From Escherichia phage RB49, in the sequence record NC_005066.1: DNA of 64,000 nt; one strand, 5' to 3'. Made by a program: the position numbers and the translations under genes. Within the stretch, counting starts at the first letter, position 1. The number at the start of each line of letters is the position of its first letter. Below the pieces are notes generated by a model. That model did not search any database. It was not told the DNA's origin and saw nothing but the letters and a program-made list of their open reading frames with translations. Positions 10,026 through 16,588 of this stretch are shown here, one piece after another.

Positions 10026-10957
10026 TGTTTGATTTAAATGACTTTAACGAACAAGCCGCTAACCTTGACTTTCAGCGATCGAACTTATTCAGTGTGGCAT
10101 TTGCCACCACTCCAAGTAATAAGACACAAGCGATCCTAGAAAGTATGGGTGGTGCGGTATATGATATTATACCAAATGCATTAAATGACTATTTCGGGAT
10201 TACTCGTGGTGATTATACTGACGCATTAACAAATCTTGCTGTACAGGGTGTTAGGCGTGCTGTTGATTCATCTGGTGTCAAAAAGTATCTTTTAGGTGCA
10301 ATGTCATCCCGCGTAGTTCAATCTCTTCTGGGGCAATTTGATGTTGGTACGTATGCGCTTGACTGGTTCAATATGGCATATAAGACAAGCGGTCTTCTGG
10401 TGTATGCTGTTAAGGTTCCAGAAAACAGATTGAATTATGAAATGGACCGTAACCACAATGCGCCAAACATTCGAATTACCGGACGTGATTTTGATCCGCT
10501 TGTATTGAGCTTTAGAATGGACTCTAGCGCATCAAACTATAGAGCAATGCAGGATTGGGTTAACTCAGTAGAAGACCCCGTTACAGGGCTTCGTGCGCTT
10601 CCTGTTGACGTTGAAGCAGATATTCAGGTCAACTTACATAACCGAATGGGAGTTCCTCACACGATCATGATGTTTAATGGTTGTGTTCCTGTTGGTGTGA
10701 GTGCACCGGAATTAAACTATGAAAACAACAACGAAATCACAACATTCGATGTTACTTTTGCGTATAGGACTATGCAAACTGGTGCTGTAGGAGAGCAAGC
10801 CGCGCGAGAATGGATTGAGGATAAGGCAATAAACGCAATAACAAACACTTTCGGTAATAATTTACTTGATAGTGGGTTATCTGCTGCTGGTAATGCTTTA
10901 TCGCGTCTAAATGGCGTTGGTGGGCGTGTGGTGAATACTGTTACTAACTGGTTCTGA
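10025..10957 (+). CDS. 54: gp54 baseplate tail tube initiator
   Basis: Size and synteny. Confidence 0.7.
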   Translation: MFDLNDFNEQAANLDFQRSNLFSVAFATTPSNKTQAILESMGGAVYDIIPNALNDYFGITRGDYTDALTNLAVQGVRRAVDSSGVKKYLLGAMSSRVVQSLLGQFDVGTYALDWFNMAYKTSGLLVYAVKVPENRLNYEMDRNHNAPNIRITGRDFDPLVLSFRMDSSASNYRAMQDWVNSVEDPVTGLRALPVDVEADIQVNLHNRMGVPHTIMMFNGCVPVGVSAPELNYENNNEITTFDVTFAYRTMQTGAVGEQAAREWIEDKAINAITNTFGNNLLDSGLSAAGNALSRLNGVGGRVVNTVTNWF

Positions 10958-10965
10958 TAAGCGAA

Positions 10966-10995
10966 AGGCGGGGATAATCCCCGCCTTTTTATTTT
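10966..10995. terminator. intrinsic terminator after gene 54 (overlaps stop of convergent minus-strand gene)
   Basis: Hairpin GGCGGGGA-taat-CCCCGCC followed by T5. Confidence 0.7.
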
Positions 10996-11474
10996 GCTAA
11001 ATCATTGCAATATTTTAGTGCCTTAGTTTGAAATTCTGCGCTGTTAAGTTCTTCATAACGGTCATAATCACCGTTTAATGCTGCCTTTCTTGCTTCTTGC
11101 TCTATCTGCATGTCAGACATGATAATACAGCGATCCCGCGCTTTCATCTTCTCAAGTTGTATAGACTCTTCTTTCTGCTTGCGCAATTCTTCTTGACGCT
11201 TCTTTTCTTCTTGTGCTTTCTCTTCCCGCGCTTCTTTGATTGCATCCTTGAACATCTGCGTTTGTGGTGCTAAACCAACTTTAACTCGATCTACGTCTCG
11301 ACGTTCCATTTTAGAAATAAAGCATGATTCGATCTGATCATCACTTGCATATGCTGCTTTACATTCACGAAGCAAGAAAACCGGATCTGATTTAGCATTC
11401 ATCATAGCTTCCATGTTGGCACAACCAGTAAGCATGAATACAGCCGCAAGACCAATCAGTTTAATCATTTTCAT
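10989..11474 (-). CDS. putative lipoprotein with coiled-coil region
   Basis: Signal peptide with lipobox LTGC; KR/E-rich coiled-coil segment. Confidence 0.6.
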   Translation of the reverse strand: MKMIKLIGLAAVFMLTGCANMEAMMNAKSDPVFLLRECKAAYASDDQIESCFISKMERRDVDRVKVGLAPQTQMFKDAIKEAREEKAQEEKKRQEELRKQKEESIQLEKMKARDRCIIMSDMQIEQEARKAALNGDYDRYEELNSAEFQTKALKYCNDLAK

Positions 11475-12295
11475 TTAGTCACCTCACCGAAAATTGTAAA
11501 TTGTCTACGATTCTCATCGCCGAAAGATTCTACTACGTCGTTTACCTTGACGCAAGTCCCGCGCGGTAAAATTACTTCACATTCGCAAGGGTTCCATGCA
11601 ATGGACCCAACAACAAAACCTTTATGATCTTTTACGTCAATTACCCATGATACATTACAAGAATGTTGCATCTTTCCGGTCATTGATTCATATCGATTCT
11701 CACAATAAAGGCTAGTGCTGTTTGATAGCCATCCTCCAAAGATGATCGGTGTCATGCTGGTTGACACAAAGTTTTTAAAGGTAAATTCCTTATCTTCAAT
11801 AATACGCTCTATTGTCTGAATGTCAAGATGTTGACCGCGATAAAGAGTACCGTTTAACTTTTCGGTTTTATCCATGACGCAATCCATCAAATCAACAATC
11901 TCTGATATCTCATCGGTCATGTCTTCTTCCCCTAAGAGAGCACCATTTACCCATTCGTATTGCTCAGACACATAATCACAGATTGCATTATATTCTGCTG
12001 GTGTTATGTTGTTATGTTTGTAATGTTTGAATACATTATCTCCAAAGTCTTCGGAGTGTACTTCATACATCACATTAATGATTTTCTTGACAAATCCATA
12101 ATCTTGTGTCTCACGCTCAAGGAAGCGGATAACCTTCACATAATCATCAAAGTTAATCTGATCGCTGATCATCTCAGTGATCATGTAACCATTAATCCCC
12201 TCAATGTCATATGTTTCAATATAATTGTCCATACGTTCCATCATTGATTCGCGTGATTCTTCCGAAAGACGAAAATCCTGTAATTTCTTGAACAT
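11471..12295 (-). CDS. Alt-like ADP-ribosyltransferase paralog (274 aa)
   Basis: R-S-E triad motifs shared with adjacent Alt: LYRGQ, FKNFVSTSMTPIIFGGW, ECEVILPRG. Confidence 0.8.
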   Translation of the reverse strand: MFKKLQDFRLSEESRESMMERMDNYIETYDIEGINGYMITEMISDQINFDDYVKVIRFLERETQDYGFVKKIINVMYEVHSEDFGDNVFKHYKHNNITPAEYNAICDYVSEQYEWVNGALLGEEDMTDEISEIVDLMDCVMDKTEKLNGTLYRGQHLDIQTIERIIEDKEFTFKNFVSTSMTPIIFGGWLSNSTSLYCENRYESMTGKMQHSCNVSWVIDVKDHKGFVVGSIAWNPCECEVILPRGTCVKVNDVVESFGDENRRQFTIFGEVTK

Positions 12296-12372
12296 TTTAA
12301 ACCTCCCATATAACAGAAAACGGGGCTAGTATAAAACTAGTCCCCGTTTGAGTCAACCATTATTTCTTAAAA

Positions 12373-14424
12373 TTACATTTTAAATTTATCTGGCATTGCG
12401 TCTACAGATACCAGATCAGCGATAAGCTGACGTAGAGTTGCCTTATCTGCTTTCTTACGTTCGGTTTTAGCTTCGCTAATGAAGCTGGAGAAAGACAGGT
12501 CAGAAGCAGGTTTAACAACACCTTCACGGATGAATGCATCACCGTCCGCGATCATCTCGCCAGATTCTTGTAATGCTGCCAGTTCATTTTTGTTCATAAT
12601 ATGTGCCTCAATGTAATAAGTTTCTTGTGAATCCGTCGATGCCGTAGCACGAGTTACCGTATCAAAGGATAACACAACACCGCGAGGAAGTAAAATCTCG
12701 CATTCTTTGTAAGCAAATGCTTTGTTACCTACTGGCAAGACAGGGATGTTTTCCGCGCCAGCAATGGAGAAAGCAACATTGGCGCCACCTTCACCGCGAG
12801 AGCCAGCCATAGAATCAACACCAGCAACGGCACTAGCCACGTTTGCATTCCAGCCGCCAAAAATGTTAGGTGCAAGGGAAGTGCTCACATAGTTTTTAAA
12901 GTAAAACGCTTTTTGCTTACGTGCAGTTTCCCACATTTGCGACCGGAAGTCCATACCACGATACAGAATAGTACCCGGATCAAGTTTAACGCCATAGTTG
13001 GAGAAGGCATTATCCAGTGCATCGCACATCTTGACCAATTCTTCTGGATCTGATATGCCTTCAAACTCTTCCAGCTTGCGGTCGGTTAGGAAGTTGTTCA
13101 TATTGATGTATGCTGCATCGGCATATTCGCTCAACACAAAACCTTCCGCGCCTGGCAGATCAAGATCAATATCTGCCATCATTTCACCCATGTTGCTAGC
13201 AATTGCTTCAAACATACCGGAAGCAACATTACGTAGGGCATCGGTTTTAATCTGGGTGATATGACTACGCAGCATTTCAGCTTTTACATCTGCTGGCATA
13301 GACTGGTCTACTCGATCCATTGCCAGGGCGGTGATCTTGTTTTCGAATACTTCCTCGCTCATGATTTCTTTTAAGCGTTTGACCGAGGCTGCGATAACTT
13401 CCGCAGACAACGGATCATATTGATCCTGAACTTTTACCAGTTCGCTTACTGCGTATTTTGCATCGGCTTCGCTTTCAAAAATAGTACGCATGAAACCATA
13501 GCGAGTGATAATATCACTTGTCCAGTCATTCAGAGAACGGGCGGTTGAACGTTCTAAGGCTTGACGGTCAATCAGAGTATTAAACTGTTTCTTAGGTTCG
13601 GCTTCGGTGATATCTTCTTCCGGTTTAAGATTAATTTTTTCTGGATGATTCACATAGTCGCTGTTATAGGTCGCTTGAGTTTTCAGCATTTCTTCTTTAG
13701 TCAAACGAGATTTAGCCGCTACGCGTTGTTCTGCTTCCGCGTTTCGTTCTTCTTCTGACACAAGACTAGCCGCATACGCTTCATCTTTAGTCAGAGATTC
13801 ACCAGTAGCCTTAGATACCCAGCGATCACCTAAATCACTTTCTACTTTAGTGAACAAGGATTCATCAAGTTTAATCCCTTTAATCTTATCAATCGCCATC
13901 CCGCGACGCTTGACAACAACTAAAGCGATCTTTTTGCTGGTCATTACTTCCTGCTGGAATACTTCAAACTTCGGTGTACGACGCACCAAACGCTCTATAA
14001 CGCGCTTAACCAGTTCGGTCTTACCTTTCATGCGGGATACGTTAAAACGGAACATAACAGCGTCTAATTGCGATTTACGGGCTGTTTCCATAACCACATC
14101 AAAAGCACTTGCCATGACTGCAATCGGGTTATCGCCTAGACCATTTTTAAGCTGTACAATACGACCGCTTTTGTTCATTTCGCACAGTACAACATGTGCG
14201 GTCTTGTCACCCATACGAATGATTTTAGGTGTTTTGTTGGTGAAGTTACAAAGACGGACAATCACATCTTTATCGCGTGTCTGTACTGCAAAAAGCTGTT
14301 TAGGATTCTGCTTAGGCTTTAAGCACTGTACCGGAGCAATACTGCCAAAGTTTTCTTCCTCTTCCGTCAACAGCCATTTCTCGAAAGATTCAATCATTAG
14401 ATCGTCGATTTCTAAGTTAAACAT
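12373..14424 (-). CDS. alt: Alt RNA polymerase ADP-ribosyltransferase
   Basis: 683 aa (T4 Alt 682); YRGMDF, FKNYVSTSLAPNIFGGW, ECEILLPRG. Confidence 0.9.
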   Translation of the reverse strand: MFNLEIDDLMIESFEKWLLTEEEENFGSIAPVQCLKPKQNPKQLFAVQTRDKDVIVRLCNFTNKTPKIIRMGDKTAHVVLCEMNKSGRIVQLKNGLGDNPIAVMASAFDVVMETARKSQLDAVMFRFNVSRMKGKTELVKRVIERLVRRTPKFEVFQQEVMTSKKIALVVVKRRGMAIDKIKGIKLDESLFTKVESDLGDRWVSKATGESLTKDEAYAASLVSEEERNAEAEQRVAAKSRLTKEEMLKTQATYNSDYVNHPEKINLKPEEDITEAEPKKQFNTLIDRQALERSTARSLNDWTSDIITRYGFMRTIFESEADAKYAVSELVKVQDQYDPLSAEVIAASVKRLKEIMSEEVFENKITALAMDRVDQSMPADVKAEMLRSHITQIKTDALRNVASGMFEAIASNMGEMMADIDLDLPGAEGFVLSEYADAAYINMNNFLTDRKLEEFEGISDPEELVKMCDALDNAFSNYGVKLDPGTILYRGMDFRSQMWETARKQKAFYFKNYVSTSLAPNIFGGWNANVASAVAGVDSMAGSRGEGGANVAFSIAGAENIPVLPVGNKAFAYKECEILLPRGVVLSFDTVTRATASTDSQETYYIEAHIMNKNELAALQESGEMIADGDAFIREGVVKPASDLSFSSFISEAKTERKKADKATLRQLIADLVSVDAMPDKFKM

Positions 14425-14465
14425 TTTATATCCTCTAGTTGATAACCTATAAACCTATATTTATG

Positions 14466-14490
14466 AAAAGGGGGCTTAACGCCCCCTTTA
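14466..14490. terminator. hairpin terminator between small early gene and alt
   Basis: AAGGGGGC-ttaac-GCCCCCTT with flanking T/A runs. Confidence 0.5.
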
Positions 14491-14703
14491 TTATAATGCA
14501 CCATCGAGCAATTGCTCTAAGGTGTATCCTGAATAGTCTTTTTCAATCAGGGTATATTTTCCTACTCGTTTAATCCAGCCACGCATTTCAACGTATTCTG
14601 CGTAGTTGATGGTGCGAGTTGTTCCATCTTCTAGCAAAGCAGTACCGATTTCGTTAATGCGGTCATAAGTTACGTCGGTAATGATGATTTCGATGTTAGC
14701 CAT
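14491..14703 (-). CDS. small early protein (70 aa)
   Basis: Track ORF preceded by PeSL cassette with GGAG RBS. Confidence 0.6.
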   Translation of the reverse strand: MANIEIIITDVTYDRINEIGTALLEDGTTRTINYAEYVEMRGWIKRVGKYTLIEKDYSGYTLEQLLDGAL

Positions 14704-14774
14704 TTGATACTCCTTAGTAGTTCGTTTCGGTATGGGTGTATTATGATATACACCCTCTGTTATGTCAACAACTT
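14704..14774 (-). promoter_or_regulatory. PeSL-like early promoter cassette (-35 TTGACA, -10, 5' UTR with SD)
   Basis: Conserved tcgtttcggtatgggtgtattat...tgtcaacaactttt (plus-strand reading). Confidence 0.65.
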
Positions 14775-14954
14775 TTAGAACATTTTTGAAATTAATTCTG
14801 CTTTGATTTCGCAGAGAACATCTAAAGATTTCTCGTCACCTGCTTTTGCGGCTTCTGTTTGCATTTTTGAAATGGCTTCAATGTCAGTGCAATTATAAGC
14901 CGCTTGAACTTTAGCGATTGCGATGATTGCCGATTCGATGGTTAAGTGTTTCAT
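14775..14954 (-). CDS. small early protein (59 aa)
   Basis: Hand-translated ORF MKHLTIESAIIAIAKVQAAYNCTD... below track cutoff; preceded by PeSL. Confidence 0.5.
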   Translation of the reverse strand: MKHLTIESAIIAIAKVQAAYNCTDIEAISKMQTEAAKAGDEKSLDVLCEIKAELISKMF

Positions 14955-15022
14955 GTTTGATTCTCCTTTCGTTTCGGTATGGGTGCATTATAGGGGATCG
15001 GTGACCCCCTGTCAACAACTTT
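14955..15022 (-). promoter_or_regulatory. PeSL-like early promoter cassette with stem-loop
   Basis: gattctcc...gtttcggtatgggtgcattat AGGGGATCGGTGACCCCCT gtcaacaactttt. Confidence 0.65.
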
Positions 15023-15541
15023 TTAGTTATTTTTTAATTGTTCATCTTGCAATAATGCAATCACATGCTGGCGATGTTCTTCCGATTGAGACACACCGAA
15101 AAAGTTTGTTTTGTAGAAATACTCTAATCGGTCTTCTCGTGTGCTCTCTTCCATCATGATCGCGGGTAGTCCGAGATTTCGGAAACGTCGCTTTTCTGCT
15201 GGCGTAAAATCACTGTAATACAACATAGAATCATCATTACAAGCAATGCTAAACTCATCCTTCATAAAGGAGAATATTGCGTTTAAACGCTGTTTACCGT
15301 CCACGATTTCGATCTCATAGCGAGAGCCATCATCAATCTTAGCCATTGCGATAGCACCAACCGGAAAATCATTAATCAGGTTTTCGATAAACATACGTTT
15401 GTTTTCGGTGTCCCATACTAAAGGACGCTGATAATCTGGGTTCATGTTGATATAGCCATCTTCTAACCATGCTTCATAAACAGAGATAACAAAGTTTTTA
15501 GTATTGGTATAGTAACGGCGTTTAGGCGTTAAACGGTTCAT
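15023..15541 (-). CDS. DUF262 (ParB-like nuclease/NTPase domain) protein
   Basis: Motifs PDYQRPLVW, FPVGAIAM, VDGKQRLNAI; start placed at ATG with AGGAG RBS (track ORF begins at upstream TTG). Confidence 0.7.
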   Translation of the reverse strand: MNRLTPKRRYYTNTKNFVISVYEAWLEDGYINMNPDYQRPLVWDTENKRMFIENLINDFPVGAIAMAKIDDGSRYEIEIVDGKQRLNAIFSFMKDEFSIACNDDSMLYYSDFTPAEKRRFRNLGLPAIMMEESTREDRLEYFYKTNFFGVSQSEEHRQHVIALLQDEQLKNN

Positions 15542-15542
15542 G

Positions 15543-15872
15543 TTATAGTCTCCTGAATGGATCATCACGTAAATCAATATCTTTTAAGAACTCATCCCAT
15601 GAATGGCGGATATTGTTCTTAATTCTCCAGATAAGAGCAGGGATTGAACGCTCTCCCATCTGGAAGTATGGATCATATGATCCGTATGCCCAATATGCTA
15701 CTACAATTCCACAATCAGCGCAATAGTATTCTATTTCACTTGCTGGCGACCAAAGTCCATCAATATGATCGGTGATCTTGCTTTCGATGTTATGGCTATG
15801 ACAATCAGGGCAACGGATGCAATGACCTTGTTTATCGTAATTTGACGTTAGCGAATACTTAAACAATCTCAT
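15543..15872 (-). CDS. Zn-ribbon protein (109 aa)
   Basis: CIRCPDCHSH ... CADCG cysteine pairs; TAATG overlap with upstream gene. Confidence 0.6.
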   Translation of the reverse strand: MRLFKYSLTSNYDKQGHCIRCPDCHSHNIESKITDHIDGLWSPASEIEYYCADCGIVVAYWAYGSYDPYFQMGERSIPALIWRIKNNIRHSWDEFLKDIDLRDDPFRRL

Positions 15873-16588
15873 TATAGATCCTTATTTGCTTCAAATACTG
15901 CCTTTGCGAATCCTCGCGGGGTAAGTGACCTGATAGTCTTTGTTTTCGTTCCTTTCCCGCCTAGCTTAGAATGCTGTTTACTGTACCCTTTATTAATCTG
16001 CAAAGGTTTCTTTTCTGGCATTATAAAGCCTTGTCCGGTCCATAAGCAAGTCTTTTTCGGGTACATATCACGGGCGGCAATATACTCAGGAAAAGTAGGA
16101 TGTTTATCATCTTCCGGCAAATAACCGCCATATTCCCACGGATGGAACATATAATCAGGCTTACGCCACATGCTAGAGATAACGCTTACAGGATTCTCTA
16201 TCATGTAGGGAACTCCTATCCATTCACCCAAATAAGCGGTTATTTTAGCTGCCCTTACATCATGAACTTGAATCAATGGTCCTTGTTCTAGTTTCTTTCG
16301 TTCAAAGTGCGCAGCGCCACTAACAGCTAAATTGGTGCACGGTGGGAATGCAAAGATAATATCCGGTTTCCCCCATTCAAGGTCCATTGCTCTTTCCAGC
16401 CAGTTCAAATCAATCCAGGTGTTTACATAGGTAATGTTTGGATGTTCAAATCTGGTATTATATTTTTTGTATGTACCGTGGTCGCCATCGTCAGCATTAA
16501 AGCAGATCACCTTATGACCCGCTTTAGCCCATTCTAACCCCATTATCCCCGACCCGTCAAAGTTGCAGAATATTAATTTTTGTTTCAT
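15872..16588 (-). CDS. C5-cytosine DNA methyltransferase-like protein (238 aa, short)
   Basis: Motif I-like FCNFDGSGIMG..AG, motif IV-like FAFPPCTNLAVSGA, motif VI-like MIENPV. Confidence 0.55.
   Translation of the reverse strand: MKQKLIFCNFDGSGIMGLEWAKAGHKVICFNADDGDHGTYKKYNTRFEHPNITYVNTWIDLNWLERAMDLEWGKPDIIFAFPPCTNLAVSGAAHFERKKLEQGPLIQVHDVRAAKITAYLGEWIGVPYMIENPVSVISSMWRKPDYMFHPWEYGGYLPEDDKHPTFPEYIAARDMYPKKTCLWTGQGFIMPEKKPLQINKGYSKQHSKLGGKGTKTKTIRSLTPRGFAKAVFEANKDL

Follow-up and report, generated by a model that had tools for sequence, protein, structure and literature searches.

Directly downstream of the gene for the ADP-ribosyltransferase (ART) Alt, Escherichia phage RB49 carries a second gene whose 274-aa product, here called the short ART, is probably a functional stand-alone Alt-type catalytic domain that is made early from its own promoter and is not packaged. 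Both genes lie on the minus strand of the 64-kb stretch of sequence record NC_005066.1 analysed here (the window; 64,000 nucleotides, corresponding to positions ~15.6-77.8 kb of the RB49 assembly OZ035808.1), alt at 12373-14424 and the short ART gene at 11471-12295. In the list of open reading frames (ORFs) the order on this strand is alt, a 77-nt gap, the 274-aa ORF and an overlapping 161-aa ORF, beyond which the baseplate/tail-tube genes 54 and 48 follow in convergent orientation. An earlier note on this DNA had placed two tandem ART genes here, and the ORF list together with a PF03496 match on both proteins bore this out. Established for the short ART are its homology, the conservation of its motifs, purifying selection, its fold, its synteny and the conserved regulatory cassette. 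Neither the gene nor its paralogy to alt nor its ART annotation is new. RB49ORF183c, 44RRORF188c and T4 alt.-1/alt.-2 were described as genes that 'appear to be paralogous duplications' of alt (Nolan et al. 2006, Virol J 3:30, PMC1524935), PHROG 15144 bears the name 'ADP-ribosyltransferase', and the same annotation is found in the RefSeq records of GEC-3S, JSE, Phi1, ECD7 and KFS-EC and in many GenBank records. With the paralogy in print since 2006 and the product named an ART in databases, the finding is real yet known; only the regulatory reading (early, not packaged) and the conservation data are new here.

Relation of the short ART to Alt

The alt gene encodes a full-length Alt-type ART of 683 aa, with a region specific to Alt at its N-terminus, a catalytic domain (residues ~420-612) and a conserved C-terminal tail. 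Its product is 99.7% identical to RB49 Alt, is covered over its full length by PHROG 802 (E 7e-180), matches PF03496 at residues 425-610 (37.7 bits) and is named alt in GEC-3S, JSE and Phi1. The product of the 274-aa ORF is 100% identical to RB49p183/ORF183c. It was matched by PF03496 (ADPrib_exo_Tox) with 59.3 bits (E 4.3e-16; residues 82-266, profile positions 2-187 of 196), the gathering score of this profile being 23.4 bits, and was covered end to end by PHROG 15144 (E 2.6e-198); its PHROG matches were 15144, 802, 26651 and 9935 only. Residues 1-39 are unique to the short ART, residues ~40-95 form a helical stretch with homology to Alt ~360-420, and residues ~96-274 make up an R-S-E catalytic domain with R153, S178-T179-S180 and E238-C-E240 (ExE) in R-S-E order.

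BLASTP aligned residues 151-257 of the short ART with Alt 487-593 (37% identity over 109 residues, E 1e-16). A set of six short-family sequences, consisting of the window protein and its metagenomic homologues, was used for the alignment, the profile and the structural model. Profile-profile alignment (hhalign) of these six members with 19 full-length Alts equated short ART 40-273 with Alt 360-612 (probability 100%, E 1.3e-42, 231 columns). The sequence similarity of the two proteins is far above chance. The earlier note had read R-S-E motifs in the same order in both, and all of the motifs that it quoted were found, LYRGQ / FKNFVSTSMTPIIFGGW / ECEVILPRG in the short ART and LYRGMDF / FKNYVSTSLAPNIFGGW / ECEILLPRG in Alt. 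Its claim of conserved catalytic residues likewise stood on careful alignment: R153, S178-T179-S180, E238 and E240 are invariant in all six short-family members, which are 42-83% identical, and align with the same residues in four Alt proteins. The Alt-type block F-x-N-x-x-STS-x-x-P-I-x-FGGW is also invariant in 6/6 members.

The short ART is equivalent to the catalytic domain of Alt together with ~55 residues of the preceding helical region. The note was right that the N-terminal region of Alt is missing, the absent part being ~360 residues and not ~400 aa as it had stated, and the C-terminal ~70 aa of Alt (...DGD...MPDKFKM) are missing as well, the short protein stopping just past the last core strand. 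This tail (YDGD...MPxKF) was present in 4/4 aligned full-length Alts. PF26846 (Tevenvirinae_ADPRT) was recorded on the 668-aa Alt of the divergent metagenomic contig L009 and was absent from the neighbouring 275-aa protein. Compared with T4 Alt and Krischvirus Alt, the short ART shares the signature YRG...FxNxVSTSxxPxIFGG(W)...ECEhhLPRG with its R-S-ExE arrangement, as well as the alt locus between the gene 30-side early genes and gene 54. It differs from them in its unique 39-aa N-terminus, in the absence of the ~360-aa N-terminal region and the ~70-aa tail, in its position behind a predicted sigma-70 promoter instead of a late promoter, and in an identity of only ~30-37%.

An AlphaFold2 model of the short ART built from the six sequences was of moderate confidence (pLDDT 68, pTM 0.62). 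Foldseek matched this model to C3bot2 (1r45), Vis (4xzj), Certhrax, CDTa and iota Ia at E ~1e-9, with probability 1.00 for the first four, and a profile search against PDB sequences retrieved SpvB and Vis, the latter a NAD+-arginine ADP-ribosyltransferase. Within the R-S-E clade, Glu-x-Glu marks arginine-specific enzymes and Gln-x-Glu marks C3-type asparagine-specific enzymes. The short ART has the fold and the catalytic motifs of the C3-like, VIP2-iota-CDTa, Vis and SpvB toxins (PF03496), with ExE as in the arginine-specific iota, CDTa, Vis and SpvB; unlike these toxins, to which it is 14-21% identical, it is phage-encoded, intracellular and without a secretion or translocation component. By its sequence it would be a mono-ADP-ribosyltransferase of the R-S-E clade with arginine specificity (ExE), and it most likely modifies host proteins with NAD+. 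The PADLOC and NCBIfam libraries gave no match for the short ART.

We also considered a capsid-targeting peptide at the N-terminus of the short ART, MFKKLQDFRLSE, which is superficially like MKTYQEFIAE, the targeting sequence of T4 internal proteins. When all RB49 ORFs of at least 50 aa were scanned for similar N-termini, only the short ART and an unrelated 195-aa ORF were similar. We found no support for a shared targeting signal and rejected the candidate.

Conservation and distribution of the short family

A megablast search with positions 10900-14800 retrieved 57 phage records that matched over the full length at 98-99% identity. All were Krischvirus, T4-like coliphages of the former pseudo-T-even group, and included RB49, phi1, JSE, GEC-3S and their relatives. 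The short ART is 97-100% identical across all 57 cultured records. Identity bands had hinted that homologues at 60-90% identity exist among cultured phages; with the limit set at E <= 1e-40, nothing but the 57 Krischvirus records (97-100%) was left, and these presumed homologues were dropped. The metagenomic homologues are 83, 63, 46, 45 and 42% identical to the window protein, and the length of the family is 272-288 aa. A search of 1.84 billion cluster representatives with the six-sequence profile gave four matches below 1e-30, all of them members of the short family, followed by Alt-like proteins of 600-700 aa and then by giant multidomain phage proteins. A 264-aa short homologue, P0017, was unmatched at E <= 1e-30 in the collection of phages that was searched. 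Of the cultured phages, only Krischvirus has the short form, and the diverged members of the family are metagenomic only.

Comparison of the window with the 83%-identical homologue on contig L016 gave a synonymous divergence (dS) of 1.17 and a nonsynonymous divergence (dN) of 0.11 for the short ART, a dN/dS of 0.096, with similar values in its N-terminal (0.09) and catalytic (0.08) parts. The arrangement of the locus is kept as well. On the 20-kb metagenomic contig L009, whose proteins are ~45% identical to those of the window, alt (668 aa) is followed by the short ART (275 aa), a 159-aa lipoprotein and genes 54, 48 and 29, and on three further contigs (L013, L014 and L016) the genes are arranged as in the window, within the reach of each contig. 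By these measures of sequence evolution the short ART is a live, intact gene under purifying selection. The paralog is intact and not decayed, given a dN/dS of ~0.1, invariant catalytic residues and conserved synteny.

Regulatory sequences around alt and the short ART gene

The 77-nt gap between the two genes (12296-12372, minus strand) was identified by promoter scan, RNA folding and a five-lineage alignment as a composite terminator-promoter cassette. It comprises an A-rich upstream stretch, a -35 box TTGACT (12356-12351), a 17-nt spacer and a -10 box TATACT (12333-12328), the sequence of the gap being AAGAAATAATGG-TTGACT-17 nt-TATACT. The promoter scored 10/12 in the scan, and GEC-3S has a promoter annotated here. 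Superimposed on it is a hairpin with a 1-nt bulge (12348-12319), followed by TTTTCT and by the Shine-Dalgarno (SD) sequence GGGAGG at 12307-12302. In the RNA fold this hairpin, AACGGGG(A)CUAGU/ACUAGCCCCGUU and then UUUUCU, had an energy of -20.9 kcal/mol (z = -2.4), and the -10 box of the promoter lies in its loop and the top of its 3' arm. An alignment of five lineages whose short ARTs share 42-83% identity showed no change in the A-rich stretch, in TTGAC and TATACT, in the G4/C4 stem or in the T-run; where the stem does vary, the changes are compensatory, and the 1-nt bulge is kept in all five.

Cassettes of a sigma-70 promoter and a stem-loop (PeSLs) are a known feature of RB49 and phi1, and some of them were shown to be active as promoters and terminators (PMC2839356; PMC4122927; Arbiol 2010; Comeau 2014). 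Canonical PeSLs, with GGGGATCnnnGATCCCC in the -35/-10 spacer, are abundant in the window, where early-promoter cassettes of this type (aaaaagttgTTGACA-GGGGATCnnnGATCCCC-TATAAT...aggagaatcaaaATG) were found on the minus strand with -35 boxes starting at 15015, 17147, 17391, 21718, 22863, 23276, 34531 and 58951. The cassette between alt and the short ART gene resembles them in its AT-rich stretch, its sigma-70 consensus promoter, its Gn-loop-Cn stem-loop and the SD/ATG just downstream, and also in being more conserved than the flanking genes, with divergence rising across it. In canonical PeSLs the stem-loop lies wholly within the -35/-10 spacer, whereas the hairpin here extends over the -10 box with the T-run coming next, and for this reason it resembles a classical intrinsic terminator. 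As judged from its sequence, the cassette is a positional variant of the PeSL type. Between the window (11419-14186) and L016 the 77-nt cassette is almost identical, with a dS of 0.30 in alt on one side and of 1.17 in the short ART gene on the other. Such a jump in divergence would fit a recombination event at the cassette, in line with the shuffling of modules by PeSLs that has been proposed.

Upstream of alt, a late-promoter-like cATAAATA is located on the minus strand at 14458-14464, 33 nt before the alt ATG. ATAAATA is the core of the T4-type late promoter. The motif occurs at 8 sites in the 64-kb window against 24 +/- 5 expected, every shuffle giving at least 8, and its presence before alt is meaningful because it is so strongly depleted. 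From the alt start to the short ART gene no ATAAATA was found. The site is preceded by an intrinsic terminator at 14466-14489 (minus strand; AAAGGGGGC-gttaa-GCCCCCTTTT), a G+C hairpin with a T-run that is annotated in GEC-3S and TB34 and that would block upstream early transcription from entering alt. The divergent contig L009 has an equivalent hairpin and then aATAAATA 31 nt before the alt ATG. Late promoters of the RB49 type vary at position -13 (Nolan 2006, PMC1524935). The depletion of ATAAATA across the window is, as a separate observation, consistent with selection against spurious late promoters.

From this arrangement we propose that full-length alt would be a late gene with terminators on both sides, its product being packaged and injected by analogy with T4 Alt. 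The short ART gene would be transcribed de novo and early by the host sigma-70 RNA polymerase, from a promoter inside the terminator of alt. Because the predicted transcription start (~12321) falls within the 3' arm of the hairpin, the early transcript would escape the terminator that stops alt transcripts. The earlier note had suggested a 'packaged or early' effector. The second half of that suggestion is favoured by the conserved sigma-70 promoter and the lack of a late motif, and the first half is disfavoured by the absence of the non-catalytic regions of Alt.

ART repertoire and duplication history

Whole-genome searches of RB49 were performed on the unannotated assembly OZ035808.1. A tblastn search of the whole RB49 genome with T4 ModA and ModB (from NC_000866) identified a single Mod-family ART gene and no second one. 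This gene, outside the window at OZ035808.1 86698-87246 (minus strand), adjoins dda and encodes LYRGV...SFT...ERE within an ORF of 167-182 aa that matches PHROG 832 and resembles ModB (E 9e-10) more than ModA (E 1.5e-5). The ARTs of Krischvirus are Alt, the short Alt-like protein and one Mod; those of T4 are Alt, ModA and ModB. The short ART had no PHROG 832 match, and BLASTP against the RB49 Mod homologue gave an E value of 0.45. Like ModA and ModB, it is a small R-S-E ART with a single domain and, with early expression and no packaging predicted, it would act in the same phase of infection; unlike them, it falls outside the Mod family and lies at another locus, the Krischvirus Mod homologue being found beside dda. 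It may act as an ART after injection, in the manner of ModA/ModB, though by descent it is Alt-like.

The alt locus of T2 (L003 650-4804) contains two full-length tandem Alts of 697 and 685 aa that are 41% identical. Both start with MELITELFD and plausibly carry, for that reason, the same N-terminal processing/packaging signal. In T4 the paralogs alt.-1 and alt.-2 are fragmented (Nolan 2006, PMC1524935). The second Alt copy of T2/RB51-type phages, T4 alt.-1/alt.-2 and the short ART gene of Krischvirus share the position directly downstream of alt and before gene 54. They differ in that the T2 copy is of full length (685 aa) with an Alt N-terminus, the T4 genes are fragments, and the Krischvirus gene is a compact, conserved form of the catalytic domain only. 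The short ART is ~30-37% identical to all Alts and about equidistant from them, with scores of 81.6-92 bits against the second T2 copy and 66.6-87 bits against its own Alt. Since it is equidistant from the Alts and scores slightly best against the second T2 copy, the alt duplication is old and not a recent local event.

The adjoining lipoprotein gene and other neighbours

The 161-aa ORF (RB49p182; 10989-11474, minus strand) encodes a predicted lipoprotein with a lipobox LTGC, four further conserved Cys residues and a charged, coiled-coil-like middle; it is annotated as 'putative lipoprotein' in W115 and belongs to PHROG 16112, a family without known function. A lipoprotein gene follows the short ART gene in L009, L013, L014 and L016. 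Between the window and L016 the amino acid identity is 31% for the lipoprotein, 83% for the short ART and more than 95% for Alt. The ATG of the lipoprotein gene overlaps the stop codon of the short ART gene (ATGA), so that it is probably on the same early transcript, and the short ART would be co-transcribed, and probably translationally coupled, with this variable gene. Where the lipoprotein gene and gene 54 converge, a terminator scan found a hairpin terminator of 12 pairs, 7 of them G-C (10963-10989). It is annotated on both strands in GEC-3S and probably ends the short ART/lipoprotein transcript. One may speculate that the lipoprotein is a superinfection-exclusion or receptor-masking protein. 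A toxin/immunity pair of the short ART and the lipoprotein was also considered and set aside as unlikely, the signal peptide directing the lipoprotein to the envelope and the ART being cytoplasmic.

Two further ORFs on the minus strand were noted in the early region upstream of alt. One of 184 aa (15023-15577) looks DUF262/ParB-like by its sequence (...NPDYQRPLVWD...DGKQRL...), and one of 238 aa (15872-16588) is a DNA methyltransferase according to the GEC-3S annotation.

Discussion

We infer that the short ART is enzymatically active, specific for arginine, made early and absent from the virion, and its target is likewise a matter of inference. Several points weigh against the view that it is an early, unpackaged, functional Alt-type catalytic domain. 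Its promoter is a 10/12 consensus match and is predicted only, and intrinsic terminators of T4-type phages are often leaky, for which reason transcription that starts at the alt promoter may read through late in infection. The lack of the non-catalytic regions of Alt is no more than suggestive as regards packaging, which other parts of Alt may direct. In the AlphaFold2 model, residues 182-210 and 231-237, the latter beside the ADP-ribosylating turn-turn (ARTT) loop, had a pLDDT below 50. In the searchable literature we found no expression, proteomic or biochemical data on the short ART for any Krischvirus, nor a virion proteome of a Krischvirus.

Read-through of the alt terminator is also what a second packaged and injected effector, made late, would depend on. 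The short ART gene lies directly downstream of late alt on the same strand, the tandem full-length Alts of T2 share MELITELFD and are both plausibly packaged, and Iyer and Aravind argue that many phage ARTs of the Alt/VIP2 family are head-delivered (PMC9503650). We nevertheless regard such an effector as rather unlikely here, in view of the conserved terminator between the genes, the conserved sigma-70 promoter of the short ART gene itself and the absence of ATAAATA before it. The missing N-terminal ~360 aa and C-terminal tail of Alt, and an N-terminus that is not shared among RB49 ORFs, with no common capsid-targeting peptide seen, point in the same direction. Still less credible is a decayed remnant of a tandem alt duplication, comparable to T4 alt.-1/alt.-2. 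The fragmented paralogs at the T4 locus (Nolan 2006, PMC1524935) and the shortening of the Krischvirus copy at both ends relative to Alt would fit decay, which we consider highly improbable given a dN/dS of ~0.1 over a dS of 1.17, catalytic residues invariant in six lineages, a length held at 272-288 aa with a strong SD and conserved synteny, and 97-100% identity in all 57 cultured records. The remnant is refuted by selection and conservation, as far as sequence allows.

The substrate may be considered separately from the timing. The earlier note also supposed that the target is probably a different one, which from the sequence is a conjecture. With Alt, one short Alt-like protein and one Mod in Krischvirus, a ModA-like role for the short ART is a reasonable idea from the gene content. 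In its specific form, the short ART would substitute for T4 ModA and complete the ADP-ribosylation of RNA polymerase alpha Arg265. The single Mod homologue of RB49 is nearer to ModB, early expression of the short ART is predicted, and Alt, its catalytic-domain paralog, targets alpha Arg265 among others (PMC3014915). This is, however, an argument from gene counts, as the single Mod could be ModA-like in function, and the short ART shares ~30-37% identity with the catalytic domain of Alt, from which its substrate-recognition (ARTT) region differs. We hold this substitution to be rather unlikely as a specific claim; it is a special case of the early, unpackaged ART proposed above and involves the same mechanism. 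An active ART with a substrate other than an arginine of the host machinery for transcription or translation, acting perhaps in counter-defence on a host immunity protein or in ModB-like RNAylation with NAD-capped RNA, seems very unlikely. AcrIF11 (PMC12421852) and ModB RNAylation (10.1101/2021.06.04.446905) are examples of phage ARTs in such roles, and the locus, with its modular exchange (dS rising from 0.30 to 1.17 across the cassette) and its hypervariable adjoining lipoprotein gene, is typical of host-interaction genes; the sequence of the short ART nevertheless holds no pointer to a particular target, and PADLOC and NCBIfam gave no matches.

An early, unpackaged Alt-type catalytic domain is the reading that we prefer. 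Going further, and tentatively, the job of Alt may have been split, with late Alt being injected and the early short ART taking a ModA-type role, the second round of modification of RNA polymerase alpha, or hitting a new host target, and the cassette may serve as a recombination joint for the short ART/lipoprotein module. Phage ARTs are under re-examination, for example because of the RNAylation activity of ModB, of ARTs that act as anti-CRISPRs and of defence based on NAD. An Alt catalytic domain that is compact, conserved and probably made early would be a convenient enzyme, and a tractable one, for studying what determines the choice of substrate by Alt-type ARTs, and the short ART could show how T4-like phages other than the T-evens reprogram the host with another set of ARTs.

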